Shown: positions 15,960 through 62,199 of the stretch, piece by piece
Layout of the letters: each line of letters begins with the position of its first letter
Position numbering within the stretch: the stretch's first letter is position 1
NCBI GenBank assembly: GCA_951406725.2
Contig: OX597815.1
Span: 168,640,001 to 168,704,000 of the forward strand
Source of the DNA: Octopus vulgaris
Taxonomy: Eukaryota
Direction: 5' to 3'
Length of the DNA: 64,000 nt
The notes under the pieces: generated by a model
What the model was told of the DNA's origin: nothing
The model's database searches: none
The model's input: the letters and a program-made list of their open reading frames with translations, nothing else
Made by a program: the position numbers and the translations under genes

Positions 15960-16296
15960 TTAAAGATGATTAAAAGATGATAATATACATTTGTTGGATA
16001 AAAATTAATTTGTTTGTAAATTTCTTGTGTATCATAAGAATTCAAGAACGGCTTCAAACATCAATTTTAGTACTTAAAATATTTCATTTTGTAACTGAAG
16101 CTTCTTGCCACTGGAAATTTGGAAAGTACAAAAATACAAGTTTTGTTTACAACTCTTGAAATTTTACTTCTGCCCTGCCATGTAGTTTACATGTGTGCAG
16201 AGTAAGTTATCTTAACCCTTTCAATACCAGTCAGCCAGAAATCACTTGTGCTTCTGTAATATAAACTCATTCATTTTAAAGTGATCATATTTAAAT

Positions 16297-17126
16297 GTCT
16301 ACAACTCTTTCCTGCAATCAGACCTAGACACAATGCAGCAATGGATCACAGACTGGCAACTGAAACTGGCTGTGGACAAGTGTACCACCATGCATTTTGG
16401 GAGAAAAAACCCTGCGTCCACATACTCCCTCCACAACACTGATATCAAGAAATCCTCTTGCGAGCGTGACCTAGGCATCACTGTCAGCAGTGATTTGCGT
16501 TGGACAAAGCATATCTCTAAAATTGTCAAGAAGGCCAAGGGTGTCTTGGCATCACTCAGCAAGACTTTTGTTAGCCGCTCTCCAGCCATCTATTTAAAAC
16601 TGTATACAGCTATGGTACGACCACACTTGGAATTCGCATCATCAGTTTGGAATCCCTATCTTGCTCAGAACATTGACCTCCTGGAATCTGTCCAGAGACG
16701 TGCAACCAAACGCATACCCTCCATCAGACACCTACCATATTCTGAGCGCCTTGTTTCCCTGGGCATGGATTCACTGAAGCTCCGGCGTCTAGCGACGGAC
16801 TTGGTAAACACCCACAAGGTTATCAACCACCTCACCAACAACAACACTGAACACCTTTTTGATCTCCATGTGTCTAACACACGTGGACATGCCTACAAAG
16901 TCAGAAAACAGCACAGCTCCCATGACTTTCGGAAACATTTTTTCACACTCAGGGTTGCTGAAGCGTGGAATAAACTGCCTGCATCAGTTGTTGACTGCCA
17001 TGACACTGCATCCTTTAAGGCCCTCATGCTTCCCGAAATCCGTCGAAACTACACCTGATTATATATACACTTTAGATGAGTTGTAGTGCACCTGAGCACT
17101 GTACACAATTATTATTATTATTATTA
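16297..17126 (+). mobile_element. 5'-truncated CR1-group LINE (post-RT C-terminal ORF2) with (TTA)n tail
   Basis: 241-aa open frame with KCTTMHFG, ERDLGITV..DL.W..HI, LY.AMVRPHLEFASSVWNPY, LESVQRRATK, TRGH, FF..RV..WN.LP; attattatt tail. Confidence 0.92.
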
Positions 17127-26793: not shown

Positions 26794-27473
26794 ATGGTTG
26801 TGTTGTTAAGAAGTTTGTTGCCCAGCCATGTGCTTTTTGGGTTTGGTTTTACTATGTGGCCCCTTGAGCAGTTGTCTTCTTGGGTTAACCAAAGGTCTTT
26901 GTAAGTGAATTTGGTTGATGGAAATTTGTATGTCTCTTTGCATGTATGTGTCTATTTGTTTAAATTTGCACTCTATAAAAATTGTTTGCTACAAGCAGTG
27001 TCATTGTTGCCACTTCTGCTGTCAGCAAATCATCTGCATATTTCATGCCTTTGAAATCATGAGAAATAAGAGATCCTTTACTTGAAAAACAAGTGAATGT
27101 TAGCAACAGGAAGGGCACCGACTATAAAACCCAATATATATGTCTAACCTGTGTTAGCCTGGGAAAACAGACATAAAAATGAATAATGGGTATATATTAG
27201 TCATTATCACATGACTGATCTACAGCAGGATGCTTTTCCTGTTGCCAACCCTCACCTATTTCCCAATATAATATTTTCCTGTGACAAGACATGCCTTGGA
27301 AAATTGGAAACAAAGGACATCTTGCACGACAATTATGCAACATCGAGGTTAGGACAGAATTAATATAATGACCAGCATGGTTTAGAGATTTTGAATTGAG
27401 ATATTATTCCAATTACTGTAGAGAAAAGATTTGCAAAATATTTAGGCAATGTTGTTTTTTCTTCTGTTTTCAG

Positions 27474-28073
27474 AAAATCATCCGTGAAAAGATTGAAGCT
27501 AAGAAAAAGGCGGAAGCTGCTGAAGCTGAAATGGAGAAAGATGAAGACAACCCAAACAATGAGAATGGAGAAGAAAGAGAAAATGTTGATGATGAACATA
27601 TTGAAGATGATGATGAGGAGGAGGAGGAAGATACTTGTAAAGATGATGAGGATGAAGAAATTAAAGATGAACGCCTTGAAGCCGACATGAAATCAGATGA
27701 AGAAAATCAAGACTATGAGGGAGAATTAGAAAAGACTTTAATAGATGAAAGTAAAGATGAAGATACTATTGTAGATGAGGATAATAATATTGAAGACTTG
27801 GAAGAAGAGCTAGAGGAGGAAGTAAATGAGGAGGTCGAACATGAGGAGTGTGAAGAAGTGGAAGAGAGGAAAGAGGAAGAGGAAACTGCTGTGCTTGATG
27901 AACAGATTGAGAGGGTAGAGGAAGCTGATGAACGGCCAGCAATCGAAGAGGAGATGGAAAGGAAAAATGAGGTTTTCCCCATTGAAGGAGAGGAAGAAGT
28001 TCCAGTTGTCAGTACAAAAACAAGAAGCCGAAGTAGAAGCCGGGGACGTGGTCGTGGCAAGGGAAAGAAATAA
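27474..28073 (+). CDS. Terminal exon of matrin-type ZnF gene: D/E-rich disordered tail ending TRSRSRSRGRGRGKGKK*
   Basis: tgttttcag acceptor at 27473, phase 0, within ORF 27396..28073; TAA stop. Confidence 0.92.
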   Translation, partial: KIIREKIEAKKKAEAAEAEMEKDEDNPNNENGEERENVDDEHIEDDDEEEEEDTCKDDEDEEIKDERLEADMKSDEENQDYEGELEKTLIDESKDEDTIVDEDNNIEDLEEELEEEVNEEVEHEECEEVEERKEEEETAVLDEQIERVEEADERPAIEEEMERKNEVFPIEGEEEVPVVSTKTRSRSRSRGRGRGKGKK

Positions 28074-34860: not shown

Positions 34861-35025
34861 ATCATCATCCTCATTGTCCACCTTTCATACTAGCATTGGT
34901 TAGGTGGTTTGACAAGAGCCTGCACCAGAGTTCTGTGTCTGTTTTGGCAGGGTTTTTACAGCTAGATGCCCTTCCTAACACCAACCACCCAGCAGAATGG
35001 ACTGAGTGCTTTTTACATGGCACAA
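34861..35025 (-). mobile_element. Diverged RTE-type 3' end
   Basis: catcatc tail plus gatgcccttcctaacaccaaccac core in reverse orientation. Confidence 0.7.
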
Positions 35026-35091
35026 GCACAGGTGAGGGTAGAGTGGTGAGGGGGACAAGGACTAACACTAAGATTATATATATATATATAT

Positions 35092-35673
35092 GTGGCACAT
35101 AAAAAGCACCAACCGATCGTGGGATCTCGCTGTGCTTGAGGAGACCTGTTGAGTCAAGTGCATGTACATGAACATCGAACCAAATATCAATGGAAACAGT
35201 AGTAGTTGTGATACCTGTGCCGGTGACACATAAAAAGCACCATCCGAACGTGGCCGTCGCCAGTGCAGCCTCCACTGGCTTCTGTGCCGGTGGCACATAA
35301 AAAGCACCATCCGAACGTGACCGATGCCAACCCCGCCTCGAATGGGTTCTGTGCCGGTGGCACATAAAAAGCAACATCCGAACGTGGCCGATGCCAGCAC
35401 CGCCCCGACTGGCTTCTGTGCCGGTAGCACAAAAAAAACAAAAAAACAAGCACCAACTGATCGTGGCCGATGCCAGACCCCTCTGGCACCTGTGCAGGTG
35501 GCACGTAAAAAGCACCCACTACACTCGCGGAGTGGTTGGCGTTAGGAAGGGCATCCAGTTGTAGAAACACTGCCAGACCAGACTGGAGCCTGGGGCAGCC
35601 CCTGGCTCCCCACAACCCGGTCGAACCGTCCAACCCGTGCTAGCGCGGAAAACGGACGTTAAACGATGATGAT
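35092..35673 (+). mobile_element. RTE-type LINE 3'UTR with ~67-bp tandem units
   Basis: taaaaagcac-type motif at 35100, 35231, 35298, 35365 and 35506; shared 3' terminus and gatgatgat tail. Confidence 0.88.
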
Positions 35674-35815: not shown

Positions 35816-37476
35816 TCATTTGTACCTATACTTTTCATGATTTCCTTATGAGTTTTAAAATAGGTAAGTTTTTTCAAAATTATAATTAAGCATAGATGAA
35901 AGAATTGATGGAACCCTGATATAAATGCTATTTTTTTTGCTTCAATGTAGCCAATTCCAAGAGAGAAGAATTGATATCAGTGTTTGGTACTTCATAGAAA
36001 AAAGAGAAAATGTTGGTCTTCATGAGATTTGAACTTGGCACATAACTTAAATAAATACTTTATGATTTTAGCTGGTGCTGACAACTTCTAAATTACAGCC
36101 TTAGCTATATTTAACAAAACTTAATGATTGCATTTTCAGAATCTACTATTGGCCTTTAAAAAAAATATTTTAGTACACTGACAGTTTATAATAAGGGCCT
36201 ATATATATATATATATATAATCATTTTAATGTCCACACTTTTTCATGTTTACATTCATCAGACAGAATTTGTCGAGGCAGACTTTCTATAGCTGGGTGCC
36301 TTTTTTTTGTTGCTAACTCTCGCCTGTTTCCAAGCAAAGTAATATTTTCCTTGGTTAAAACGAACACCACCTGTATGATGGTGATGCTCATTTACAATTA
36401 TGTGATGTCAAGTTAAGGAAACATCTACATGGTGGAAGTCAACTTGTGACCAAGCAAGACCACTTCCTAAACTCAGTAAGTCCATGCCAAGTCCAAAAAG
36501 TTATGCATGAATTTGTTTTGAGTGGATAAAGTGTTGCACAACACTGAACCCACTTTTCAGTGTAGTCAACCATAAAACCAGAGGAACAATAGAGGTTGAG
36601 ACAACCAGAAACAAACTACACATCAGGCTTTATATATATATATATACAAGTTTACCTTCTAGAAGGAAGTACAGAGAAGAACTGGGAGTCTTTCACTCCC
36701 AGTGGTTCATATGCAAATTAATCCATAGCTGGGACCATAGTAGGTGCTACTACTCTGGGTCAAAATAGACCAGGGAACAACAGTGACTAAAAGCTGGTTC
36801 CACACTTCTTGAAACCCTGGAACTCCCATACCAGAGCTCTGTTACTAGATGCTTACAATTTTTCATGATTTCCTTATTGTTCTGAAGTTGGTAATAGGTT
36901 TTTTCAAAATTATTATTAAGCATGGGTAAAAGAATTGATGGGATCCTTGTATACATGACAGGCTTTTAGTTTCTGTCTGCCACTTTGGTTGATTTGGGGT
37001 TATTGAACAGTATTTGGCATAAAATCTTCAGATTCACCATTCTTGATAAACATTTGAACAGCAAACATGCAATGTATACAGGTCCAAACTATGATGGTAA
37101 TTGGTTTATAGGTTTTTTCTTCTTGTCCTTACATTTGCTGTTGAAACAATTATCAAGGATGGTGAATCTGAGGTTTTTGCCACACCTTGCAGAAGTCACC
37201 TGACCAATGGAACCAAACCTGAAAATTATGTGTGTATTAGTGTTTGTGCTCAAGCACTTTTCACTGTCAACATATTTTTGACTCACCACTCATTACTTAT
37301 TTCAGTACAGCTGTCTTTTTTCTTTTCCTACCCTTTTGCATACATTAGGCAATGTATCTTATATGCAGCCTATCTCTTCAACTCATTCGATGCTGTTTTA
37401 TGCATGCCAATGTTACATATTCAATAGATGAAATCTAATTAGCCACTCTCCTATCTCTGCAGATCTTTATTCAATA

Positions 37477-38898: not shown

Positions 38899-39794
38899 CA
38901 TGACTGCTGAGGACATGCATAAGCTCGCAAGGAATGAATCCAGTATGATCCGATGGATGTGTAATGTCAGCGTGCGTACTTGAGAGAAAAGTTGGACCTA
39001 AGAAGCATCAGACATAGTGTGCAAGAGAGACGACTGCGCTGGTATGGTCATGTGGCGAGAATGGATGAGGGAACCTATGGAAGAGGTAGACCCAGGAAGA
39101 CCTGGGATGAAATGGTGAAGCATGACCTTTGAACATTAGGCCTCACCGAGGCAATGACTAGTGACCGAGACTTTTGGAAATATGCTGTGCTTGAGAAGAA
39201 CCAATAAGCCATTGAGACAATAACCTCGTGGCCTATGCCAGGGGTGTAACCAGCCTACTTAAGCATACCTTTCCTTCATTGTACACTAAACTCTGCTTGC
39301 GAAGACCTGTTGAGGCAAGTGAAATCGAAAGCGAAATCAAATTCAATGACTGGCATCCGTGCTAGTGGAGCGCGAAGAGCACCATCCGAGCATGATTGTT
39401 GCCAGAGCAGCTAACTGGTTTCTGTGCTGGTGGCACATAAAAGGCACCATTTGAGTGTGATCATTACCAGCATTGCCTTACTGGCACGTGAAAAAAACAT
39501 TCGAGCAGGTTGTTGCCAGTGCCGCTGGACTGGCTCCTGTGCAGGTAGCACATAAAAAACAGCATTTGAGCAGGGCTGTTGCCAGTATCGCCTAACTGGC
39601 CCCCATGCCGGTGACACGTAAAAGCACCCATTACACACTCGGAGTGGTTGGCGATAGGAAGGGCATCCAGCTGTAGAAACACTGCCAGATCAAGATTGGA
39701 GCCTAGTGCAGCCATCTGGTTTGCCAGCCATCAATCAAATCGTCCAACCCATGCTAGCATGTAAAGCAGACGTTAAACAACGATGATGATGATG
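38899..39794 (+). mobile_element. 5'-truncated RTE-type LINE (ORF C-terminal remnant + 3'UTR repeats)
   Basis: LARNE.SMIRWMCNVS, RLRWYGHVARMDE and GRPRKTWDEMVK remnants; tail gatgatgatgatga. Confidence 0.88.
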
Positions 39795-39821
39795 ACACAT
39801 TATATATATACACTATATATA

Positions 39822-40003
39822 TCATCATCATCATCATCATTTAACGTCCGTTTTCCGCGGTAGCATGGGTTGGACGGTTCGACCGGAGTCTGGGAAGCCA
39901 GGGCTGCACCAGGCTCCAGTCTGATCTGGCAGTGTTTCTACAGCTGGATGCCCTTCCTGATGCCAACCACTCCGCGAGTGCAGTGGGTGCTTTTTACATG
40001 CCA
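39822..40003 (-). mobile_element. RTE-type 3' end, tail-to-tail with the previous copy
   Basis: (catcat)n-ttaacgtccg...gtgggtgctttttacatgcc. Confidence 0.85.
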
Positions 40004-40095: not shown

Positions 40096-40431
40096 CTAGC
40101 ACTATGACCCGGCATATACAGCTGCATGTGTGCGCACATACACGCGAGTACTGTCCAAATCTCCGACCAATCACATACAGCTAGCTGGCATTCAATTGGC
40201 GTATCAAGTTTCGGGCATTTTGATTGGGTTTTGGATAGAAAATTCACAAAAAAGTCACTTCTATTGCTTTTTTAATGGCTTTGCAGGGTGACTGGGGAAA
40301 TGTAAAGATGTGCATGACCACCCTTGGACGGTTTTGAATGACCACAGTAAGTGCGAGCCCTCTAACTGAAAAATTGTGGATTTGTATAAAGGACACACAC
40401 ACAGACATTTTGCCATTTATATATATAGAGA
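40096..40431 (-). mobile_element. Non-autonomous Helitron-like element
   Basis: Minus strand A|TC start (tctctatatatataaatggcaaaatgtctgtgtgtg) and CTAG|T end with a GC-rich subterminal segment. Confidence 0.65.
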
Positions 40432-40435
40432 TGTA

Positions 40436-40733
40436 TATAATTGAGAGAAAAACCTCTATTAAGTAATTCAATAGTGAAAGACGTTATTCACACCATATGG
40501 AAAAAATAAATATACTATAAAAACTTTATTGTAAAAATCAATAAAATACATAAACGATAAATAGTATATAAACAATAAATAGTAAATAGTAGTACTACCA
40601 TTTACTATTTATTGTTTATGTACTTTATTGATTTTTAGAATAAGGTTTTTATAGTATATTTATTTTTTCTATATGGTGTGAATAACGTCTTTCACTAGTG
40701 AATTGCTTAATAGAGGTTTTTCTCTCAATTATA
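40436..40733. repeat. ~300-bp imperfect palindrome beside (TA)n
   Basis: tataattgagagaaaaacctctattaag... pairs with ...cttaatagaggtttttctctcaattata; centre gtagtactac near 40594. Confidence 0.9.
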
Positions 40734-40736
40734 CAG

Positions 40737-40777
<41 letters not shown>

Positions 40778-40881
40778 ATATATATATAACATAGTAAGGA
40801 ATAACAAGTATTACAGATTATCAGGAAGTTTACTATTTTAGACTTTTCTAATGAAATGTAAAAAGTATATTTTATAATATT

Positions 40882-41023
40882 ATTATTACAAATTTGGGAT
40901 ATTTACCAATAGATAAGTAACTCCTATTTCAACATAACCTCATGGTATGGTATATCATACCATGAGGTTATCCTGAAATAGGAGTTGCTTATCTATTGGT
41001 AAATATCCCAAATTTGTAATAAT
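40882..41023. repeat. ~140-bp palindrome
   Basis: attattacaaatttgggatatttaccaatagataag... pairs with ...cttatctattggtaaatatcccaaatttgtaataat. Confidence 0.9.
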
Positions 41024-44000
41024 TATATACACAATATAAAGACATATATACACTATATATATGTTGCATTCTCTTCATGCTCACTTTCCCCCCTCTTTTC
41101 ACTTCACTGTATCCCTGTCATTTTTTCTTGCCCCTCCTTATTTCTCCTGTCCCTCTGCCTCTACCTCTCTCTCTCTTCTCTCCCCACATGACTGGCATTC
41201 AGCCAAGCCTGACCTTTCTTTCTTGATTAGGCCATTGTCCAGGCAACCTCTATATTCTTCCCTGTGCCTGTGAAATCTTGTATCCCTGCCGTAAGGCTTT
41301 ACTTCCACAAACGCCAGTTTAATTTAATTCATCCTCAGTCGAAAGACACCGGTTGTTATGTCCTGTTATTTGTATTGGTGTAACTTTCTCTGTTTTTCCC
41401 GTCTTTGTTTCTCTATACATTCGCTACTTTCTTCCAAGGAATCTAATGCTCTTAGCTTGGTTTTTCCTTGGGGCTGGCCAGATTGGAGCAATCTCGAGTA
41501 TAACCAGGTGAAATTGCAAAAATAATCTGGAACTTGACTGAGGAAGGGAAACTCCGAATGACCCATCCTTGTTTTCTTTATATCGTCTACAATATACAAT
41601 ATATATATGCATACATATACATACAATAACATACAATATGTATATATACAATATATTCATATATAAATATATATATATATATATACATACATACATACAA
41701 AATTTAGGTTAGTTAAAAAATGTCTGTGACATATTTCAACTGTTAAAAGGCAAATTCACTGTGGTTACCATGGAGAAAATATTACTCTTATGGCAAAAAG
41801 ACAGTGCTTATCACTTTTGGGGCTCTTTAAAACTTGTGAGATAGCTGTGTTAATGTTCAGCTTAAACATCTGCTGAGTGAGGAGAGATTTGCAGACGACT
41901 GTAAAGGAAGGATTCGTTGAAGAGCCTTAGGAGGTGAAGATACAATAAGAGTTAAGTGAGGAGGAGCAAAATGGGTGGGCCTGAATGGATAGGATGTGTA
42001 AGTATCTAGTTCAGAGACCATTGGTGGTTGTTTAAGAAGAAAATTGCAAACTTAATTCCTCAACCAAGTGCAGTTGCTAAGTACATTTAGTGTGAGAATT
42101 GTAATGGAATGCTGGCAACATCTTTCAGAAGCTTTCATTTAACTGCTATTTAAAATTATGATGAATAACTGAAGACATAATCGCAGTTCATCAAGAGTGA
42201 GCTTTTGTACTGAATATTTATCAAAATAATGTTCTTCAATGATGTCATTATGTACTGAACCTGGGTTTAACTTTACTATTTAATTGCAGTTGTTTTATGT
42301 TGAGATTTCCAGTAGATGCTGGCTTAAATTATAAGGTGAATGTTAGTTCAAGTACAAAAGTAGATAGATTTCTTATTTTTATGTCAATAAAATGAAATAT
42401 TTTCCAAGCCAAACAAAGGATCCTCTATGTAGTTGTGTGATATCGTGGATATGGCAGCCAAATCTCAAATTACATCCTTCTGTCTTAAAAATGAACACAC
42501 TAAACAATGTGATATTATATACACAGTAACCGATTATGGTTGGTATGCCTTTTGATTAGAGTTGACCCACAGTTAAATAATAATAATAATTCATTGTCCA
42601 AAATTTCACTGAAATTAAAACATATTACATAAATAAATGACAGTAGAAATTATTACATAAACAAATGGAAAAATGAGATTTTTTTTACATTTTTCTATTT
42701 TATTTTTCTAAAAATATTAATACCAAAAGCTGAACACTGGTGGCGAAAAGTACTAAAGTTAAATATAATTTTTGGTTTTCATTTTCATATTTTAGATATA
42801 AATAAATACATGATTTCAATAATGATTTAGTTATTAGTCACATTGGTGATATAAATTTAAGATATGATTATGAGTCATAAAATATGGAGATCTTTTTGCA
42901 GACATTCTTCTTGAAAGAACAATTTACTATGCTACTCAGCTTACAACAGAGAAATGAAAAGGAAGTTTTCATTTGTATTAACTATTATGTACGATGAAAG
43001 ACAAGACTGATTTCACTAGGGCACACCAAGCTTCTTCATACACTGCTTAGTTCATTTATCTTGTAAACTGAAACAGAGTTACTGAATCAATGAAACTTCC
43101 AGGTCATATACCTTAAGACCTAAACATTTATGTTACATAATGCATTTCAGCTTTGACTTATTCTGTTTCTTTATTTTCATTGAACATTGTTTACATTTCA
43201 ATTAATTTTGAAAATAAAGAAAGAAGTCAGTAAAATAACTGTCATTGTTAGTCTGAAGTCTGGAACATGAATTAACATGAAACTTTGATGCAAGGTTTAA
43301 ATTTAGATGATTTTAAAGCAAAGTTTTTATCAAAGAACCAAAGGCTGTCTCAGATGGTTTAGTATCAAAAGGTTTAAAAATAAAATAAATGGTTGGAGCC
43401 CCATTCTGATGAAAATGTGAAATATACTTGGTTTATATTACGAAGCTGGTAAAATAAAAAAATACACCTCTTTATATTATATAAAACAGTAAGCACGACA
43501 ACTATTTCAAATTTATCTTTAGGGAATGTTGTTAAGAAATATAACCCTCAGAATACAAGGCAACAGTCCAATTTTGGGTTGCGACACAATCCATAATTTA
43601 TTAATAGGAGTAAAAGACACTTAGTTTCTTAATTTTTCTTTTATTCAAGTGTTGATTATAACAGGTCTATATTTTAATGTCAAGCGACCAACTTCAAAAT
43701 AAAAACCTTAATTATAATCAATTTTGAGAACCTGAAAGTATTGGAAACCATTATTCTAAATGGGAAAGAAAATCATCTAGTATGACTCAAACCTTGCTTC
43801 TTGTGAAATAGTAATAAAAAGGCACACAATCAGTAAAGTAAAATACAAATTATTGTAAAAAAATTATGATCAGTCAAAATATATTGGTTCTAATTTCCTG
43901 TCAATCTGCTTAAGCACACAATGTTAATTTCCAGCAGAGGACCAAGCCAAAATGTGTTTTGCTCCAATTATATATTTTTATAAGTATCTAAAATGTAATT

Positions 44001-44040: not shown

Positions 44041-44551
44041 TTAAAGAGATTTAGCTGTTTCATGCATATCCCGAGTGGTAAAATTGATGCCATCACCAGG
44101 TAAGGGAGAATTAATCAAAGGACATATCCAGGATATGTGGTAATTTTTACCTAAGGCATCTAAGAAATTCCTTTTCCATCCAAGATTATAATCATGTTTC
44201 TTTGAACGACGTTCATAAGTAGTCTGTCCATTATAAATATTTCTGACATGATAAAGCAAACAGCTAATCACAGCAATAAAAACTAGTGATGAAAGACCTG
44301 TGAGAAAACAAGCTAGCAAGTGAGGAGAGTATAAAACTCCAAAGAGCCATGCTAAAATTGGTACAATTATACTGAACAGGTAAGAGAAAGAAAGCCTACC
44401 AAACTCAGTCAGTGTGTAGCGGACAAACATCAGGGTTGAATAAAAAGAAGCGATGGTTACATAGAACAATAGTAAAATGAAATAACGGAAATTGTTATGG
44501 CCAATGCATGTTCCAATAAATAGACAATGATGGTCTCGTTTAAGGATGCAT
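44041..44551 (-). CDS. ZDHHC24: DHHC palmitoyltransferase (ZDHHC24-like), coding exon 2
   Basis: Acceptor tttcttttcatag|A gives RCILKRDHHCLFIGTCIGHNNFRYF (DHHC), then TM helices, the GQTTYE (TTxE) motif, YNLGW..N and SPLPGDG; total 852 nt = 283 aa. Subfamily call is from remembered motifs. Confidence 0.92.
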
Positions 44552-44669
44552 CTATGAAAAGAAAAAGAAAATAAGCATATGGTTAATGTTTTCTTGCAAA
44601 AGGCAATAAATAAATAACAATTACTGGCAAGGAATTGACTAAAACTTCTTTTTCATCATCATCACTTAA

Positions 44670-45001
44670 CCCTCTAGCATTCAGATTATTCTGTTATATA
44701 TAATGCTTTTTCATTCATGTTGTAGAGCCTTGCTTCGGTTGAGAGCAAATAATATAAATTTGTCCTATTGTAAATAGGACAACATTTATATTATTTACAA
44801 TAGGACAAATTTATATTATTTGCTTTCATTCACGTTGTATTTAATTAATCATGCATTATCCCATAACCTTGTAATTTTGATGTGATTGTATATTTTTAGA
44901 ATAGCATTGAAGGTTATGTGTGATAGGCTGGATCTAGCTGGTTAGAACATAAAACTGATAGCATATTTAGGCTGGATATGTCTGGTTTAAATGCTGAAGA
45001 G
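44670..45001. mobile_element. piggyBac-type MITE, family B, with nested hairpin insertion
   Basis: TTAA|ccctctagcattcagatta...gtttaaatgctgaagag; about 115 bp longer than sibling copies. Confidence 0.8.
44745..44823. repeat. Perfect 32-bp inverted repeat inserted in a TTAA MITE
   Basis: Arms 44745-44776 and 44792-44823, 15-nt loop; flanking 16-bp duplication tttcattcaYgttgta. Confidence 0.85.
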
Positions 45002-45002
45002 T

Positions 45003-45225
45003 CAATGTCCATATTCTATGCTTGCATGGGCCAGATGGAATTTGCTGAGGCAGATATTCTATAACTGGATGCCCTTCCTGTTACTAACCCTCACCTGTTT
45101 CCAAGCAAAGTAATATTTCCCTATGGCCAGACATTTTCTTCATGGAAGACTGGAAACAAACATCACTTGTATGATGATGATGTTTGTCTACAACCATCAC
45201 ATAGTGATAAGACAAGGGTATACAC
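45003..45225 (-). mobile_element. Older non-autonomous retroelement sharing the RTE-type tail (related decayed copies near 9220-9460, 14570-14800, 27075-27360, 36220-36420)
   Basis: ctggatgcccttcctgttactaaccctcacctgtttccaagcaaagtaatatttcc core recurs at these loci. Confidence 0.6.
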
Positions 45226-45236
45226 ACACCATATAT

Positions 45237-45389
45237 ATATTGAGAAAAAGGAGGGAGTCAGAATTTTGGATAATTCTTTATTAGCGCTTTCAACTATTTA
45301 ATTGAATTCTTCAAGACAAAAATTAAAGCACAAAATTTTGAGAATAAAGAATTATCCAGAATTCTGACTGCCTCCTTTTTCTCAATATA
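45237..45389. repeat. Inverted repeat with ~45-bp arms beside (TA)n
   Basis: tatattgagaaaaaggagggagtcagaattttggataattctttatt pairs with aataaagaattatccagaattctgactgcctcctttttctcaatata. Confidence 0.88.
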
Positions 45390-45658
45390 CAATATCTGTA
45401 CACCACTCCAAACACTCTCTTTATATATATATATATATATATATGTCTGAAATGGTCGTGGCTTCTGGTACTTGACTGTCTGACACACACACATATATAT
45501 ATGTGTCTGAAATGATGACTTCTGGTACTTGACTGATGAAAGAAAGCCAAGAATGGCCCGTCTTTTTTTGCCTGTCCTTCTAATTGTTGTTTCTCTTGTG
45601 TGCCTTTGTGTTTTCTATCTGTCTGAAAGTTTTAATGCCCTCTATTCCATTTTTGTTC

Positions 45659-45708
<50 letters not shown>

Positions 45709-45896
45709 GTAGGTGAATGAATTATCCTAGTATGGATAATTCGGTTAATCGATACCTGGGTAGCAAATTCACGTCAGAAAACATGGTTGAAGCTACATGC
45801 CAAGGGCAAAACCCCGTGTTCCTGTGTGGAAATTTGTGTGTTTTTTTTATATGAATAAATGGAAAGAATGGAGTCCAACGAAGATTTTAACAAAAT

Positions 45897-45993
45897 TCCT
45901 TTACTTTCAACACATGTTTCGAAGACTGCATATTCTTAATTCCGAAGGAATAAAGTGTGCATTATGCCATCTTCTCTTCAGGAAAGACAAGGA
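45897..45993 (-). ncRNA. Inverted second copy of the same hammerhead (GUU triplet)
   Basis: Reverse complement of 46118-46214 with GUU in place of GUC at the cleavage triplet. Confidence 0.72.
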
Positions 45994-46117
45994 GCCTCTA
46001 TCAGTCTTTGATGACTGCCTACATTGTGTCCGCAGTGATAAAAACAGTCATTATCACTGCGGACACAATGTAGGCAGTCATCAAAAAGTATTTGTTCGTC
46101 GTGAGACTGATAGAGGC

Positions 46118-46214
46118 TCCTTGTCTTTCCTGAAGAGAAGAAGGCATAATGCACACTTTATTCCTTCGGAATTAAGAATATGCAATCTTCGAAACATGTG
46201 TCGAAAGTAAAGGA
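46118..46214 (+). ncRNA. Type I minimal hammerhead ribozyme (GUC)
   Basis: UCCUU-GU-CUUUC-CUGAAGA-GAAGA...UCUUC-GAAA-CAUGUG-UC^-GAAAG-UA-AAGGA; all three stems pair; predicted cleavage after 46202. Confidence 0.82.
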
Positions 46215-46252
46215 ATTTTGTTAAAATCTTCGTTCGACTCCATTCTTTCCAT

Positions 46253-46289
<37 letters not shown>

Positions 46290-46800
46290 TTAAAAGCTGC
46301 AGAAATATAACAAAAGCTGTTACTCAGAGTTTCACGTTTTAAATGAAGCATATTATTCTACCTCTGGTATTTGAGTACTCTTTTTTCCACCTTACTCCGG
46401 TATATATATATAAATTGATTGATTGAATGAATGTGGTTATGAAGCTTTCACTTTTTATATGGAAGACAGAAGGGGTTATAATTTTTGTATGACTTAATGG
46501 ATTGGTTGCTGTTTAGTTACATACTTAGGAGTTGGTTGTAATTTACTTATTGAATTTCTTTACCAATATGGTTGTACATAAGGTAAATGTATTTGAAAGT
46601 TGTGGTTTCTTTGGTTTGTTTGTTTCCAAACAACACTTATTTTTGTACTGTCTACATCAGTGGATTCGATGGTACTGCCCAGGTGTCGAAACCATAATGA
46701 TATCTGTGAGGCAGCTGATGATGGAGGTATGTTGGATTGTTGGTATGGCTGTTTTTGTATATGTGGAATAGTATTATAATACATCCTTTTGATATATATA

Positions 46801-47745
46801 TCATCATCATCATCGTTTAACGTCCGTTCTCCATGCTAGCATGGGTTGGACGGTTCGACCGGGGATCTGGGAAGCCAGAAGGCTGCACCAGGTTCCGGTC
46901 TTATCTGGCAATGTTTCTACAGCTGGATGCCCTTCCTAACGCCAACCACTCTGTGAGTGTAGTGGGTGCTTTTTACGTGCCACATGCACTGCTGCCAGGC
47001 GAGGCTGGCATCGGCCACAGTCGGATTGGTGCATTTTACGTGCCACCTGCATGGAAGCCAGTCGAGGCGGCACTGGCTTCGGCCACGATTCGGATGGTGC
47101 CTTTTACGTGCCACTGACACGGAAGCCAGTCGAGGCGGCGCTGGCATCAGCCACGATTCGGATAGTGCTTTTTACGTATCTCCAGTCCAGGGGTCCTGGC
47201 ATCTGCCGGGTGCCAGTCATAGGATTGGTTCAATTTCGATTCCGATTTCACTTGCCCCAACAGGTCTTCGCAAGCATAGGTGCCTGTCGTCAGATGAGGT
47301 TCGATATCGACTTCGCTTGCCTCAACAGGTCTTTGTGTGTCCAAGGGAGGAAAGGCATGCATAAGTGGGCTGGTCTCACTTGTCCTGCCTGGTCTTTTCA
47401 CGCACAGCATATTTCCAAAGGTCTCGGTCGCTGGTCATTTCCTCAGTGAGACCTAAAGTTCGAAGGTCCTGCTTCACCACCTCGTCCCGAGTTTTCCTGG
47501 ATCTACCTCTTCCACGGGTTCCCTCCACTGTTAGGGATTGGCACTTTTTCACACACCTATCTTCATCCATTCTCACCACATGACCATACCAGCGCAATTG
47601 TCTCTCTTGCACACCACAACTGATGCTCCTTAGGTCCAACATTTCTCTCAGGGTACTAACGCTCTGTCGAGCATGCACACTGACATTACACATCCATCGG
47701 AGCATACTGGCTTCATTTCTCGCGAGCTTACGCATGTCCTCAGCA
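46801..47745 (-). mobile_element. 5'-truncated RTE-type LINE in ZDHHC intron
   Basis: ORF 47376..47735 (MLRWMCNVS...LRWYGHVVRMDE...GTRGRGRSRKT), 3'UTR tandem units, (GAT)n tail. Confidence 0.9.
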
Positions 47746-48004
47746 GTATATATATATATATATATATAAGTTAAACTGGTTGCACAAAAGAATCAATAAA
47801 ATGGGGGGGCGGTTCTATCCAGAATGATGGTCCCAAGAATTTTAGCTTCTGAAAATTTAAGGATACAAATAATGGAGTATGTCCACTGTTTTTACCTTTA
47901 CTTCTTCCTTCACTTAAGAGTGTGCTTTCTTCAATTTTGTATTTTAATGTGGAATATTTATGTAATTAAGTATATAGTAATAATTGTGTAAAATTCTCTA
48001 AACT

Positions 48005-48495
48005 GGAAAGCAAAGTCAACCTTGGTAAAATTTGAACTCAGAATACAAAGACTGATGAAATGACGGTAAGCATTTCGCCCGGTGCGCTTAACGATTCTGC
48101 CAGCTCACCATAATAATCCTTTTCTATTATAGACACAAGGTCTGAAATTTGAAGGTATGGGGTTTAGTCGATTACATCGACCCTAGTATTTCACTGATAC
48201 TCAATTTATCGACCCCGAAAGGATGAAAGACAAAGTCGACCTCGGCGGAATTTGAACTCAGCACGTAGCGAAATACCTATTTCTTTACTACCCACAAGGG
48301 GCTAAACACAGAGAGGACAAACAAGGACAGACAAACGGATTAAGTCGATTATATAACTGGTACTTATTTAATCGACCCAGAAAGGATGAAAGGCAAAGTC
48401 AACCTCGGCGGAATTTGAACTCAGAACGTAGCGGCAGACGAAATACTGCTAAGCATTTCGCCCGGCGTGCTAACGTTTGTGCCAGCTCGCCGCCT
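48005..48495 (-). mobile_element. Cluster of three nested/partial copies of the same SINE
   Basis: Repeated aaagtcRacctcggcggaatttgaactcag; 5' end ...gccagctcgccgcct at 48495. Confidence 0.85.
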
Positions 48496-48945
48496 TGATA
48501 CAGTTTCTAAATAATGCTTTGTAATAGGAGAATGGTAAACGTTCAAATGGTACATACAAAGCTATTTTTCTAAGAACCAAAATAGGTTGCCGGCGTAGTA
48601 GAGCCAAAATATAAAACGTTTCATTGTACGCATCTACGTTGCATTTCAATACTGATCTTTTATCTAAAATGCAAGCTTTCATCTGCAGACACACCTCTCC
48701 CACAAAGGATCGAAAGCTCACCAAAATATCTTCTCACAGGAAATGAATGCACTTTAGCTATGGACACACGTTTGCCATCTCGAGAAAAGAACTACCCTGC
48801 TTTTTTTAGTAGTCATTTAAGTGCTAATCTACTTCATTGTTAGCGAGTTTATAGAAGGGAGCAAGCGATGGATTTCGAAATCATACCTATATATATATAT
48901 GCCCCAGCATGGCCACAACTCGTGAGCTGAAACTAGAATCAATCA

Positions 48946-48994
<49 letters not shown>

Positions 48995-49417
48995 CATAAA
49001 ATAACATTATGTCACGAATACACATACTGGTAGATTCTTTGAAACACACGCATAAACTTCTATTTTTCTTTTCTTTCACAAAGGTTAGCAGTTGAAAATA
49101 TGTTGTGAACTTACATACCGACTAAATTCATGCATGCAAGTTCATTGGTATAAATACTAATGTAAAATTATTTGTATTGAATGTAAAATATATCAATGTA
49201 ACTTATTTTACATGAACTATTGATTCAAAAGCTTTAAACAAATCACATTACAGAAGAACTGAGGTTTAACTTGTTTTTGTCCATTAGTAGTAATACGATC
49301 GTGAATAAGGTGCGTTGAACTCTAAATCAATTAATACTTTATCGTCTTAAAAGTTAAGTTGAGTACCAACATATTTACAACACTTCCTACAGGTAACAAA
49401 GTCATTTTAACGCTTAC

Positions 49418-49758
49418 CTGTCACAAATGTCACAGTGAAAAGACCTCGGAGGTGCGTTGCAGACGCAAACTGAACAGTAAAACCATTTAGGTTTCAGAAC
49501 ACTCGGAAGGATCACAGAACCACTGGTTGTATCTGTAGAACTTATCTTCCAAATGCAAACCATAACATTAAAATAACAAATTACACTAAAGGTAAAATGA
49601 AGTAGGTAAACGGGATCATGCCAGGGTAGATGTTTGAATCGGGAAGGTAAAATTTCCGTATGATAAAACCATTTAGCAATATGAATGCCTATCAAAATTG
49701 TAGAAAAAGCAACCTTGTCCAATCTCGATTTTGGTATAATTTTCCATTTAATATTCAT
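49418..49758 (-). CDS. ZDHHC24: DHHC palmitoyltransferase (ZDHHC24-like), coding exon 1
   Basis: MNIKWKIIPK...two TM helices...WFYCSVCVCNAPPRSFHCDICD; donor AG|gtaagc at 49418 (phase 2). The start ATG is inferred. Confidence 0.85.
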
Positions 49759-52482: not shown

Positions 52483-52638
52483 TATAATAAGGGCAACAGC
52501 TGAGTAGCGCCACATGCTAGAAGTAGACGCCAAGTGGCTATAAAACTACCTTATGCATCACATAGACACTAGCTGATAGTTTTAGAGCCATTTGGCGTCT
52601 ACTTCTAGCATGTAGCGTTACTCAGTAGTTACCCTTAT

Positions 52639-52642
<4 letters not shown>
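52483..52642. repeat. Inverted repeat with ~65-bp arms beside (CA)n
   Basis: tataataagggcaacagctgagtagcgccacatgctagaagtagacgccaa pairs with ttggcgtctacttctagcatgtagcgttactcagtagttacccttattata. Confidence 0.88.
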
Positions 52643-53289: not shown

Positions 53290-56200
53290 GATTGCTTCAT
53301 CTTGAGAAATGATAGCCGTCCCATCAACGCACACACCACACCTCATCACATATTACAATCACTCAGCTGCTGCCTGACAGGGTTTAAAACCCAAGTGATA
53401 GATATTATTTAAGGTTCTTCTATATTTTTGCCATTTGGAATCTGATTCTGAAGGGATGTTTTTGTGAACTAGCATATGTCTTTTAAGTCCAGATATTGTC
53501 TTACAAGTTTTTTGACATGTGACACACGTTGTAAGAGGAGTTTGTTTTCCAGGATCATTACCTATTTAGGCATTACGATTTTCATGTGACTACATATGGT
53601 TCAGGTATCCTGCTTTTGACAACAGAACACGGTCACATATAATACATATCTAATGTTCACTGTTGATTACAGTTCTAATTGTTCCTTCGCGACAGACCCT
53701 TTTAAGTTCAGAGTGCTGAATCATCTTTTTCTCCCAGGCATTACAACCAGTCCTAACGGCACCTCTCCACTTGTCCCGATCTAGAACATCATTTTCCCAA
53801 TCACTTTTGTTCATATCTAGTTTCTTCAGGTTTTCCTTCACACAGTCTTTATATCTTTTCCTCGGTTTATGTTGTGGTCGCTTACCAGAGTTGAGCTAAC
53901 CATAAAAGAGACGCTTTAGCAAACACTTGTCTTTCATTCTAATAGCATATCCAGTCTATCTCATTTGAGCCAAGATAACATGCTCAACTGAGCTGCAATG
54001 TGCCATGCGCAAAACCTCTGTATCTGGTATGAATCATTCCCACTTGACTTCTTAGATATATCTGAGGCACTTTTGATGGAATCTCTCTAGCATTTTTATG
54101 TGACGCTTGTAAGTGATCCATGTTTCACTTGAATACAGAAGTGCAGACGATAAACACGATTGATAGATACTGATTTTTGTCTGCAGGGTAATGCCTCTAT
54201 CCGCCCATACTCGCTTTTCGAGCTTTCCAAATGTAACACTCCCCTTCCCAATTCGATAGTACATCTGTGCATCAAGACTACCATCTCTTGACAGTGTGCT
54301 TCCTAGGTAAACAAAGGTGTCAACGACTTCAAACCTTGTTCCATTCACAAAAATGTTTGGTTCAGGATGTTTGTCCTGGTACGAGAGTAAACATTACTTT
54401 GGTTTTCCCCAAACTAATTGTGAGTCCGAAATGTACACATTAAATGTTGCATATCCCCCTCTGAGTGTGCCAACAAATCAGCATCATCAGCATAAAGTAA
54501 TTCTCTAACAAGTATTTTGAAAGTCTTTGCTTTGCAGTTAAACCGGGTCAAATTAAAAATACGACCAGATGTCCGAAATCTGATTCCGATTCCCCTGTTG
54601 TGATCCTTGAAAGCATACCAAAGTAATGCAGCAAAATAAATGGAGAAAAGTTTAGGGACAGGAATATCTCCCTGTTTGACACCGTTGTCCACCGAAAATT
54701 CATGAGATAGCTCACCATTAAAGACTATTTGAGCTTTCATGTTTCTATATAGTTCCTTAAAAATTCTCACAAAATGTGTTGGGCAACCAAGTTTACACAA
54801 AACAATCCACAGTGCCTCCCTGTTTACCATGTCAAATGCCTTAGTTAAATCTATGAAAACCTGGTATAGTAGCATTTATTCCTCTAAGCATTTCTCTTGA
54901 ACCTGCTTCACAGAAAATATCATGTCCATTGTTCTTCGCTCAGGTCTGAAACCACACTGTTCTTCAGGAATCCCATGTGGACGCACATTCTCAACAAGAC
55001 GATCTGACATGATCCTTGAAAGTATCTTCCCGGTATGTCCCAGAAGAGTTATCCCTCTAGAATTATCATACACTGCTTTCGGGCCCTTACCCTTGTGTAC
55101 AGAGATTAGAATGCCATTTATCAATTCTTGTGGCACAGAAGATTCATTCCAAACACGAGTTATCAGGTTATGAATTTCAGACGAAATACGATCCTCACCT
55201 ACTTTCAGTATTTGAACTGGAATACTATCCAATCCAGGAGCTTTATCTGATCTCAGTTTACATAATGCCAGATTTACTTCTTCAATGGAAGGTGTATCAT
55301 CCATATCACTCTTTGCGGAATGTTATTTATGATGTCCATGTTTACTACAGACGGATTGTGGAAAAGATCTGCAGAGTGTTCTCTCCATCTATTCATTATT
55401 CGAAGAGGATCTTTAATAACCTCATTTCCATCTTTCGACTTCAAGGGAACATATGATGATGAAGATTGCTGTCCAAAAGCTTACCGCAATAAACTATAGA
55501 AACTTTTAATGTCATTCTTGTCATAGGCTGTCTGTACTTCCTCAGACAAATTTCTCCACCAAGTGTCTTTAAGCCTCCTGAGTTGTTTTTGCAAGTCTGC
55601 TTTCAGAGACTTTTTTAGTTGTACTTTCTTCTTAACGTTTGGGTCAAGAAGCTTTTCATGAGTGGACGTCTTTGTTGCTAAAAGCTCATTTATCACTGTA
55701 TCATTGGAATCAAACCAGTCTCATTGTTGTCTCCTCTTAAAACCTAACACCTCTGATCTCACTTTATATATTCCATCACGGAAAGATTGCCATGAACATT
55801 CAAAACGAACACTGCAAAACTTGTGGTTGTTTTAGCTGCTCTACATCAATTTTCTTTGGTACCTGTACACCAGCGCTACGAATCTTCTTACGGACCCTGA
55901 ACTAGAACTTGGCTCTAACCATTTTGTGATCAGTATCACAAAACAGCACCTCGCAATACTCTGAGACAGCACAAATCTTGTAAGTCAGCTTTTCGAGTTA
56001 ATACAAAGTCAATTATGCGACCTTGCTTTGATCTTGGGTGAATCTATGTAACTTTGTTTCATTTTCTGATGAAAGAAAGTATTCTCAACAATCAACCGTA
56101 GCTCAGAGCACATTTGTAGCAGATGCAACCCATTGTTGTTCACTTTTCCTATTCCATAACGCCCAAGTACATTCCAGGCACTATAGTCTCTACCAACACA

Positions 56201-57435
56201 TGCATTAAAGTCACCAAGCACAACCAGCTTCTCATTCAAAGGAAGTGATAGAATACTTCTAAGCTCCTCATAAAATGCATGGATATTTTCCTCACGAGCT
56301 GAAAATGTAGAAGCATAAATAGAGAAAACAGTTACAAAACATACACAAGAAAGAGGGATCCGGAGTTTCATTATACGTGTATTTATGCTTTGTGGTTGTT
56401 TTAGGTCTTTTAGCAAATCACTAAACATCACCTTCCCTTTTCTCTCCCTTCGGCTTCCCAACCCAGAATAATGTGAAACCTGCCACTCTTTCGACAAGAT
56501 GATCTTCATCTGAACATCTTGTTTCAGACAGATCTGCAATATCAACATTAAGACGCCTTAGCTCCTTAGTTACTAGAGCTGTTCTTTCTGGTCTATCTGC
56601 TCGATCTAAAAGAGTTCTCACATTCCAACAGGCCAGGTTAAGAGAAATCTTATTCCTTGCAAACTTGTTATCATTGTTTATATCAAATCTTTGTTCATTC
56701 CTGCTAAATTGAACCACCGTTAGCCGCAGTAAACTAACCAGCAGAGAGAGGACAGACAAATTTTAGTGCACCTTTTCTAGCACCTTCCGAGTATATCCAG
56801 GTGAGCAGTGTTCTCCTTAAAAAGGCTGCTCAGACACAGGATTCTCTACCGAAAACCGTTCCTGTCCATGAAAACATGTTAGCAATGTTAAAATAAGAAC
56901 CCTGCCGCCTTATGTGCAAATTTGTAACTGTATGCTTCCAACCAGTTAAGTCTGCATACGTCACCACGCTTCTATCGCCATAGGGCTTTTGAAAAGTGAT
57001 GATTGTACGACGATGGTCTTTTGTCGGGGACATCTGTTCTTCATTGGATTTCAGTGACAAACGCGTGTACAACACCATTGCCACTCCCTGGGTCAAAAAT
57101 AGTAGATTCAGTAACAAGCAAAGCAAGATGACTAGTACTATCTTGACTGCAGGTTTTATATCGGAGTACCTTCTCCTAGGCTTCTCCTCAAAAGGATACG
57201 GTAAACCAGCAGTGGTAGGTCAATTTGAATTCAGAGCTTTATTCTCCTATACTGGTTGTCCTGATTACGGCTTCGTTTGAAAACAGGAGCCCAGTCTGCC
57301 CCATCAACAGTCACGGCTTTGACAGTGCAGTCAGTTAAGGGACTGTCATTACCATGACCTGGTTTTATGTCAGTGTCCCTCTCCTAGAAGAGTTGTCTTC
57401 ATCACGGCTAATGAGCCTCATCTGCACTCCCCACA
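53290..57435 (-). mobile_element. Near full-length decayed RTE-clade LINE (APE + RT + C-terminal C2H2-like fingers)
   Basis: Collinear broken ORFs: LACWNVRTLLD, LSETR, LGDFNA (endonuclease); KAPGLD, RGITLL, QCGFR, FIDLTKAFD, GVKQGD, YADD, FVYLGS (RT); many stops and frameshifts. Ends approximate. Confidence 0.93.
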
Positions 57436-57644: not shown

Positions 57645-58922
57645 TTGGGTTGGCAACTAAGTTCCCGCTGTTTTTTTAAATTTTGGAATTTATTGCATTT
57701 TTAAATTTTGGAATCTATTTTTTTTCCGAGAATTCTATTTTTGAATCATTTTGGAATCTATTTTGTTTTTCCTAGTTAATTTTAGTTAATTTTTGTTTAT
57801 TTTCAGATCATTAAAATGGAATGTCAAATTAAGAAAAACGAGCATATTCGACACCTCCTTTTCGCTTTTAATCAAGGTTCTAAGGCCGCAAAAGCTGCTC
57901 GCGACATTTGTGCTGTGTATGGAGAGGGCGCCATAGCTGAAAGAACCGCTCGTGATTGGTGTGCCAAGTTCAAAAATGGAAATTTTGACCTCAAAGACGC
58001 ACCTCGTTCTGGCCGTCCAGTTGAGTTCGATGAAGAACGATTAAACCAATTTTGGCACGAAAATTCTCGGCAGACGACAAGGGAACTGGCAGAGAAAATG
58101 GAATGCTCCTACACTGCTATAGAGAAGCATCTTCACTCGATGGGAAAGGTTCAGAAGTATGGAGCATGGGTTTCGCATGCTTTAAGTGACAACAACAAAA
58201 ATCAACGAGCCAGTATCTCCGCTGGTTTGCTTGCTCGTCACCGCTCAACTCATGGACACAAGCAACGATTTCTTTACCGAATCGTTACTGGTGACGAAAA
58301 ATGGTGCCTGTACATCAATATGAAGCGGCGTAAGGAATGGCTTAGCCCCGGTAAACAAGAGTCACCGCTTGTAAAACAAGATCATCTACATAAAACGATG
58401 TTGTGCGTATGGTGGGAATGGGAAGGGATTATCCATTACGAATTGCTTGAACGGAACCAAACGATCAATGCTGAACTCTACGTTCAACAGATGGAACGAC
58501 TCAACACGGCTATTCAAGAGAAAAGACCTAATCGGCAGCATGGAGTTCTTCTGCTGCACGACAACACCCGCCCTCATATCGCCAGTATGACCAAGGAAGC
58601 CATTCAAACGCACGGCTGGGAAGTGCTGCCACATCCGCCGTACTCTCCTGATTTTGACACCAACGGATTCGACCTTTCTCAAATGCTATGCGCAGAGTTT
58701 CGTTCAATACTGCTGCAGAATTGAGAGCTTGATTGGATCAATTTTTCGAGTCGAAATTGGATGATTTGTACCAACGAGGTATTGAAAATCTTGTTGAACG
58801 TTGGGAAGAAGTTGTAAACAACAAGGTTATTGATTAATTAGTTGTTATTTTTTTATTTTTAAACCTTTGAAAAAATTTAAATTAAAAAAAAAAAACGGCG
58901 GGAATTTTTGTTACCAACCCAA
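57645..58922 (+). mobile_element. Full-length mariner element (1278 bp)
   Basis: TIRs ttgggttggcaactaagttcccgctgtttttt and aaaaaacggcgggaatttttgttaccaacccaa; TA target duplication. Confidence 0.95.
57816..58724 (+). pseudogene. Mariner transposase, frameshifted after YSPD
   Basis: PRSGRP, WVSHAL (WVPHEL), VTGDEKW, HDNTRPH, HPPYSPD, then off-frame; the normal C-terminus (GIENLVERWEEVV) lies downstream of the ORF stop. Confidence 0.9.
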
Positions 58923-61370: not shown

Positions 61371-62199
61371 CAGGGTGCAGTGGGTAAATTGTTGCCATTT
61401 TATATTTTTAATTTTGTGCGTGCGCATTCTTTGTTTTTGATTTTGTCGACTACACAGTATAGTAGGGTCAGTTGGGCACCGTCTATCAGAAAAAAAAACT
61501 GCATCATGATGCATTTCACTCTGCCAGGAATTTGGAAACGACATGCTGTACTGCTTGGCATTCGTGCCGGAAGCTGCAATTCGAAGCGCCAGAAGCTCCA
61601 ATACGAACATTTTAGAGTGTTTGAGTGTCAATCTAAGGACAGTGCAATCTAAGGACATGTACCGAGAGTGATGAAAATCAGACATCCAGTCAAAGTGATG
61701 GTGTTTGGGGTGATCACTAGTGATGGCGAAGTTATGCCTCCATTCATCTTCCCACTCTGCCTCACACTTAACACGAGTGCCTGGAGGAGGTAGTGCTGTC
61801 CTGGGTCAAGAGGGTGGCTGCTGGAAGATCCTATGTCTGGCAACAAGACTCTGCACCATGCCACACAAGCAGGAGAACCCAGTCACGGCTGTCAGACAAT
61901 TTCTACGACCATGTCATCCCTACTATCTGGCCCCATCACAGCGAGAGACCAACAAAACTCCTTGTAACACCAAAGATGAACTGAAGGCAAGGATTATGGT
62001 AGCATTCACCAACTTAAACAAGGAGATCGGCCAAAAGAGTTGCAGGACATTCCGAAGTCGTCTGGAGGCCGTGGTTGAAGCCAATGTCGATTTTATTGAA
62101 TAAATTTACTCTTTAGTTAGTAAATATATGTTAAAATGAGATGTCGGTGTTGGTTTCATTTTTGCGTAACTTAGACGACAGTTTATTTGCCACACCCTG
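61371..62199 (+). mobile_element. Deleted Tc1/mariner-superfamily (maT-like) element
   Basis: TA|cagggtg...caccctg|TA termini; remnants HPVKVMVFGVITSDG, WQQDSAPCHTS, FRSRLEAVVEAN.DFIE*. Confidence 0.85.

Follow-up and report, generated by a model that had tools for sequence, protein, structure and literature searches.

The foldback in an intron of ZDHHC24 of Octopus vulgaris is likely (probability of approximately 0.8) the dead remnant of an insertion by an abundant Penelope-like element (PLE) family, and both of its hammerheads are predicted to be inactive because a duplex holds them. In the following, the window refers to the whole stretch of DNA analyzed (64 kb), and the positions of the features are given in Table 1.

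A foldback of ~410 bp with paired inverted arms, each carrying a full type I hammerhead, was proposed in the first-pass annotation of this DNA. The alignment of the arms, the fold, and a descriptor search confirmed the inverted layout and the two motifs, while the element measured ~398 bp rather than ~410 bp. Between the arms there are 4 substitutions, and the left arm lacks 19 nt (about 46085-46103) of the right; the fold has a z-score of -36.9, none of 100 shuffles being as stable. Both arms terminate at an identical position of the family sequence, and their 3' ends face outwards into TA-rich DNA. Target-site duplications were not readable in the flanks of the foldback, which consist of TA repeats.

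Table 1. Features in and around the ZDHHC24 foldback (positions in the window).
Feature	Position	Strand	Remarks
Whole foldback element	45857-46254		~398 bp; intron of ZDHHC24
Left arm	45857..46041	-	185 bp; inverted 5'-truncated copy, 19 nt short; sense strand is the ZDHHC24 pre-mRNA strand
Right arm	46051..46254	+	204 bp; primary copy (repeat 3' end, 5'-truncated); antisense to ZDHHC24
Loop	46042..46050	+	9 nt; part of the right arm's family sequence
Likely snap-back point	46040-46041		2-nt overlap
Right boundary	46255..46285		(TA)n microsatellite; likely target site
Left boundary	45842-45856		also T/A-rich; likely target site
Type I hammerhead, GUU	45897..45993	-	C3 45981, U17 45909; predicted cut after 45909
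Type I hammerhead, GUC	46118..46214	+	C3 46130, C17 46202; predicted cut after 46202
Stem I extension of + hammerhead	46118-46122/46210-46214	+	
Stem I of + hammerhead	46125-46129/46203-46207	+	
Core of + hammerhead	46130-46136	+	
Stem-loop II of + hammerhead	46137-46190	+	54 nt
GAAA of + hammerhead	46191-46194	+	
Stem-loop III of + hammerhead	46195-46200	+	
ZDHHC24 first coding exon	49418..49758	-	114 aa
ZDHHC24 second coding exon	44041..44551	-	DHHC motif
ZDHHC24 intron with foldback	44552..49417	-	GT..AG, 4866 nt
Second foldback, ZDHHC24 intron	45236..45389	-	47-bp arms; decayed hammerhead in the loop, 45315-45282
Further single-element foldbacks	40415-40758, 40866-41038, 52483-52642, 44740-44828, 37021-37178		most with AT-rich ends

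Regarding the hammerheads, a loose type I descriptor matched exactly twice in the 64-kb window, once per strand and both times within the arms, and a stricter descriptor returned the same single match per strand and none in 100 order-2 Markov windows. The core (CUGANGA, GAAA, and UH) with stems I, II, and III in type I order is present in both arms, and in each the distance between the predicted cut and the outer end is 52 nt. When the arms were folded in isolation, stem I, the UCCUU/AAGGA extension that had been noted previously, and stem II were all recovered with pair probabilities of 0.86-1.0 in each arm, and stem III, a single C-G pair that the first-pass annotation had left out of account, had a probability of 0.05-0.21. 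The descriptor matches and the strand of the gene also agree with the earlier assignment of a GUC copy on the plus strand, antisense to ZDHHC24, and a GUU copy on the minus strand, contained in the pre-mRNA. GUU generally cleaves more slowly than GUC. Rfam gave a hammerhead neither at the gathering score nor in the list of 50 matches with an E value of 10 or less; for the foldback, the matches listed were generic miRNA hairpins only, all below the gathering score. The long stem II is the likely cause of this miss.

The tiny helix III with a palindromic loop and the G10.1-C11.1 pair are those of dimer-type PLE minimal hammerheads, from the consensus of which the present motif departs in that stem II begins immediately after A9 and is 54 nt long. 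Both motifs fit the structural definition of type I, dimer-type hammerheads and are candidate ribozymes. Folded in the dimer register, the stem III segment is fully paired (8 of 8), and the parent ribozyme, therefore, likely acts as a dimer in tandem transcripts; an inverted pair offers no second sense copy for such a dimer, and, thus, even a freed ribozyme would be without a partner. Single PLE motifs gave no cleavage and dimers gave low cleavage in a previous study (PMC4209133), and, by analogy, the ribozyme described herein would be of a weak, dimer-dependent type, the tandem partner of which is absent at this locus.

The identity of the host gene was clear: 114 of 114 and 169 of 169 residues encoded by the two exons were identical to ZDHHC24 of O. 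vulgaris (0 of 283 differing), with a single differing residue in O. sinensis and 21 in O. bimaculoides, and the Pfam DHHC family matched exon 2 (E 1.6e-21). Since ZDHHC24 is encoded on the minus strand, the pre-mRNA contains the GUU hammerhead in sense, and transcription reaches the antisense arm before it, so that the proposal that this arm emerges before the ribozyme was borne out by the strand of the exons and intron. In the full element, forcing the hammerhead to fold costs 118-123 kcal/mol, and prefix folding placed the sense arm in pairs while it was still emerging. In either transcript, the antisense arm would come first and zip up the sense arm, leaving the hammerhead unfolded; this applies to both strands because both 3' ends face outwards. 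The self-silencing previously attributed to the antisense arm is, therefore, supported in folding by this penalty. This masking is automatic for any head-to-head foldback, on both strands, and is therefore no sign of regulation. The ~180-bp intronic duplex that the transcript is predicted to form would likely be an ADAR or small-RNA substrate, and we infer that the foldback is near-neutral for ZDHHC24 and removed with the intron.

In order to survey the repeat family, 24 public runs were listed, 20 of which contain part of a 6-kb stretch; all consist of contigs, and none is recorded as RNA. Four runs (X2, X4, X8, and X9, from 4 studies) were aligned to positions 45560-46640 at 85% likeness, with 5744, 4409, and 1756 contigs being aligned from three DNA or unlabelled runs. 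In X2, the summed depth over the arms was 36,000-296,000, whereas the 8 X2 pieces listed had a median depth of 49. When mirrored bins were added and normalized, run by run, to the median for the 8 pieces listed, X2 showed about 60, 180, 1900, 6100, 7200, and 2100 piece-depths from the centre to the outer end, with the same shape in X4 and X8, a summed contig depth not being equivalent to a copy number. This gradient fits the 5' truncation of family copies, although part of it could stem from a hammerhead that is better conserved across subfamilies, given the 85% cut-off. The bin with the 19-nt deletion and the centre reached 1.6, 2.3, and 0.4 piece-depths in three runs, against thousands at the hammerhead, which argues that the foldback was not multiplied as a unit. 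The deletion-junction bin was covered in all four aligned runs, and none of the contigs listed spanned the whole foldback.

Six joints from the left arm to the right arm were found elsewhere among the 15 of 22 joints listed (45875>46065, 45901>46210, 45903>46204, 45907>46208, 45933>46201, and 45963>46177), three of which were within 4 nt of perfect symmetry. A single contig underlies each of these joints, its short side covering 23-34 letters where listed, and the joint 45858>46118, which begins just 2 nt inside the arm, was excluded. The joints suggest that other family copies fold back at centres of their own. No empty-site joint was present among the same 15 of 22, from which rows at the TA repeats had been dropped. 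Two contigs (record 19 of X8 and record 30 of X9) matched from 46040 rightwards and carried other sequence upstream, and the 19-nt segment is present in family contigs; the loop and the 19 nt are, thus, family sequence, and the right arm is the primary copy.

The first-pass annotation had made its reading depend in part on family copies conserving the core and the stem pairing. This held among the 40 differences listed of 114 in total: 16 fall in the arms and only those at N7 and H17 touch the core, and the common family letters in these differences provide a perfectly palindromic loop III (46198), a C-G pair at the sixth position of stem II, and a longer stem I. Five letters common to both arms differ from the usual family letter, which points to one template. 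The difference between GUC and GUU reflects a C>T substitution within a CpG and also occurs in other family contigs, and U17 is, therefore, neither peculiar to this locus nor of special meaning; the C form at 45909 accounts for ~75-80% of the depth in X4, X8, and X9 and for only 6% in X2. Places with A>G and T>C changes numbered 11 and 15, respectively, in X9, which is guessed to be RNA, compared with 9-11 and 14-15 for the remaining three; these counts carry no information on editing since rare variants are lost from contigs. At 46218, 16 nt past the predicted cut, many contigs leave the arm for different tails, and several subfamilies may share the hammerhead and differ at their 3' ends. The flanks of the foldback (45708-45818 and 46300-46410) are also very high-copy repeats, with a summed depth of up to about 820,000 in X2, and loose contig ends at 46338 and 46393 suggest that an internal part was lost from the right flank repeat.

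The Penelope-type origin suggested at first is likely: the architecture, hammerhead type, TA target, and high-copy 5'-truncated family are all in keeping with it, but a reverse transcriptase (RT)/GIY-YIG ORF was not linked to the arm. The hammerhead lies near the 3' end, the 5' truncation is accompanied by an adjacent inverted copy, and the target is AT-rich or (TA)n. An inspection by eye of ORF translations recognized no RT or GIY-YIG ORF in the 64-kb window, and because this link is missing, we regard the foldback as a likely PLE derivative and the arm as a likely member of a PLE. Motif scans returned 0 matches in metagenome contigs and 0 in genome contigs. In viral contigs, 34 motif matches were dismissed as chance, with 0 of 34 forming stems I and II, and a comparison of the translated arm with 1.84 billion proteins gave 2 spurious matches, both to repetitive proteins at 24-35% identity.

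An inverted 5'-truncated copy adjoining the 5' end is common in PLEs, as is a bias for (TA)n (PMC8557442), and their head-to-head inverted repeats with palindromic junctions are interpreted as self-priming, with microhomology deletions also being described (PMC3846280). The minimal PLE hammerheads occur in opposite-strand pairs 100-700 bp apart (PMC4209133). According to PMC11167929, PLE cleavage is AT-rich and affects both strands, and the PLE hammerhead cleaved only with protein and was dispensable for insertion, no RNA-seq ends being found at its site. At the present locus, reverse transcription by a PLE RT, primed at a nicked (TA)n site, would have halted ~90 nt upstream of the hammerhead core, after which the cDNA end would have annealed back to itself through a 2-nt match, been extended along its own sequence, and been joined to the other side of the target. 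The product would be a head-to-head palindrome with a 9-nt loop, from the copy of which 19 nt may have been lost during or after insertion. The junction presents this putative snap-back cleanly (a 9-nt loop, a 2-nt overlap, and one-template arms), and bears on the unsolved formation of PLE inverted repeats.

In O. vulgaris, 190 PLE families account for 6.83% of the genome (PMC13282606); the supplement of this paper does not mention hammerheads, and its consensus library may already include the present family. At the rate quoted in the same paper, 4 differences per 185 bp correspond, as a crude estimate, to roughly 3 million years. In the giant squid, 235 Rfam hammerhead matches are given in PMC6962438, and no paper on octopus hammerheads was found in open-access text. 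The head-to-head layout with opposite-strand hammerheads is already described for PLEs, to which this locus probably adds one more case.

The absence of a linked RT/GIY-YIG ORF would also suit a parent that was a non-autonomous hammerhead retroelement (a non-LTR retrozyme or a SINE-like PLE derivative) moved by PLE enzymes, with the same consequences for the locus. A stem I with a closed internal loop and an extension is in line with such a parent, and retrozymes have been argued to derive from pLTRs (bioRxiv 10.64898/2026.07.22.740005); however, the copies are inverted rather than head-to-tail, no back-going tandem joint crosses the arm among the 15 of 22 joints listed, and family contigs run on upstream of 46040 into other sequence, which makes this origin improbable. 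A tandem retrozyme at the locus itself was rejected on the inverted orientation of the pair. The length of the inverted arms and their TA-rich ends also recall a MITE-like DNA transposon that inserts at TA and includes the hammerhead by chance. It is very unlikely in view of the depth of the bin with the centre and the deletion, which is ~1-2 piece-depths where the hammerhead has thousands, the different centres at which other copies join, and family changes that respect the hammerhead pairing; a whole unit multiplied with fixed ends and a fixed centre was not what the contigs presented. Foldback reads are a known long-read artefact, and the whole element was spanned by none of the contigs listed; nevertheless, a palindrome that arose in assembly or library preparation is scarcely credible when its arms differ by 4 substitutions and 19 nt and its deletion-junction bin is covered in 4 of 4 runs from 4 studies.

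The first-pass annotation also considered the silenced ribozyme to be switchable by dsRNA editing, and a host may conceivably keep a latent ribozyme in the foldback, to be freed by a helicase or by ADAR editing for cutting the ZDHHC24 pre-mRNA. Both cores are intact, GUU is among the cleavable NUH sites (PMC3138052), hyper-editing is very high in octopus (PMC5625713), and a PLE hammerhead was activated by protein (PMC11167929). We simulated editing with inosine read as G, and 0 of 160 molecules had an intact core with formed stems; since this treatment overstates pairing, the simulation was repeated with inosine unable to pair, whereupon 0 of 122 molecules combined an intact core with a hammerhead fold that lay no more than 3 kcal/mol above the optimum. 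At 100% editing with non-pairing inosine, the hammerhead fold still costs 23-52 kcal/mol, and in the best case, in which all paired adenosines of the antisense arm, and of that arm alone, were disabled, 52 kcal/mol remains. Editing also destroys five core adenosines, all of which survive in 17% of molecules at 30% editing. Simulated editing, thus, never freed an intact core, and the switch was not sustained. Furthermore, the 1-bp stem III is without a tandem partner, only 4 of 185 bp distinguish the arms, such that intact cores need no selection, and six more single-element foldbacks lie in the window, two of them in the same intron. Taken together, a latent ribozyme in the service of the host is extremely unlikely, and a dead PLE insertion product remains our preferred reading.

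The window contains 7 single-element foldbacks, including that at 45857-46254, three of which are in the ZDHHC24 intron. This count excludes 2 inverted pairs of separate copies of common repeats, at 34937-35583 and 39620-39994; in the latter, two copies stand head-to-head around a (CAT)n/(TA)n core and constitute another long intramolecular duplex. The second foldback of the intron belongs to an unrelated family with the same head-to-head layout, and its decayed hammerhead has an extra U in the core at 45315, a palindromic loop III, a 7-pair stem I, and H17 at 45282; it is sense in the ZDHHC24 pre-mRNA, with the 3' strand of stem I masked by the arm. None of the five further foldbacks has a second copy in the window, and a hammerhead core was found in none of them. 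Since foldbacks are routine in the window, the case for a special role in ZDHHC24 is weaker and the genome-wide question is stronger.

Octopus is described as exceptional in hyper-editing and dsRNA potential in PMC5625713, the repeat-family analysis of which omits octopus, and ubiquitous editing in introns, UTRs, and repeats is reported for squid in PMC9068888. Self-primed PLE foldbacks may be a main source of near-perfect intronic dsRNA in octopus and, hence, of hyper-editing, with masked copies being tolerated in introns, because the foldback masks the ribozyme, where solo sense hammerheads are selected against. We regard this proposal as doubtful; if correct, it would provide a named cause for the dsRNA potential and hyper-editing of octopus. 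The single locus is of little weight as one decayed copy of a common repeat with a layout published for PLEs. In ORF translations inspected by eye, the window also contains Mariner-like transposase remnants at 57786-58724 (+) and 61714-62103 (+), LINE reverse-transcriptase/endonuclease remnants at 16285-17058 (+), 47376-47792 (-), and 53650-56762 (-), the second of which lies inside the ZDHHC24 intron, and, at 27372-28073 (+), an acidic ORF of 233 aa with an RS/RG-rich tail, which is likely the last exon of a neighbouring gene.

Among known systems, the conserved intronic hammerheads of amniotes belong to the same comparison class as other functional intronic ribozymes. Similar to that of the CPEB3 ribozyme (PMC10274809), the octopus intron has a putative self-cleaving motif on its sense strand; however, functional intronic ribozymes are single-copy, conserved, and active as folded, whereas the octopus motif is a young repeat copy masked by an antisense arm. 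The palindromic Harbinger repeats of Xenopus tropicalis, which are hyper-edited (PMC5625713), are alike in that a single repeat of ~200-400 bp folds on itself into a tight duplex and is a likely ADAR substrate. They are DNA transposons with a fixed palindromic consensus, whereas the octopus foldbacks were seemingly made at insertion, with centres of their own, and are ADAR substrates by prediction only. Non-LTR retrozymes, as presented in PMC7229834 and bioRxiv 10.64898/2026.07.22.740005, are also short, non-coding, and repeated, with a type I hammerhead, and differ in forming head-to-tail arrays with dimeric ribozymes and circles, whereas the inverted octopus pair cannot dimerize in cis; the latter source describes retrozymes as depleted from introns in Xenopus.

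The metazoan PLE minimal hammerheads, including the opposite-strand pairs of Schistosoma mansoni (PMC4209133), share with the octopus motif the CUGANGA/GAAA/UH core, G10.1-C11.1, a 5-bp helix I, a tiny palindromic helix III suited to dimers, and a placement on opposite strands within 100-700 bp, and are unlike it in that the octopus motif has a 54-nt stem-loop II, no extra nucleotide between 9 and 10.1, and a well-formed stem I extension. The inverted pseudo-LTR insertions of endonuclease-positive PLEs (Penelope/Poseidon and Neptune), as described in PMC8557442 and PMC3846280, resemble the foldback in the head-to-head inverted 5'-truncated copy, the palindromic junction, 3' ends facing outwards, an AT-rich/(TA)n target, a hammerhead near the 3' end, and a microhomology-type deletion. 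The foldback differs from these insertions in comprising the terminal ~200 bp only, without an ORF, a readable target-site duplication, or a clear 30-40 bp tail.
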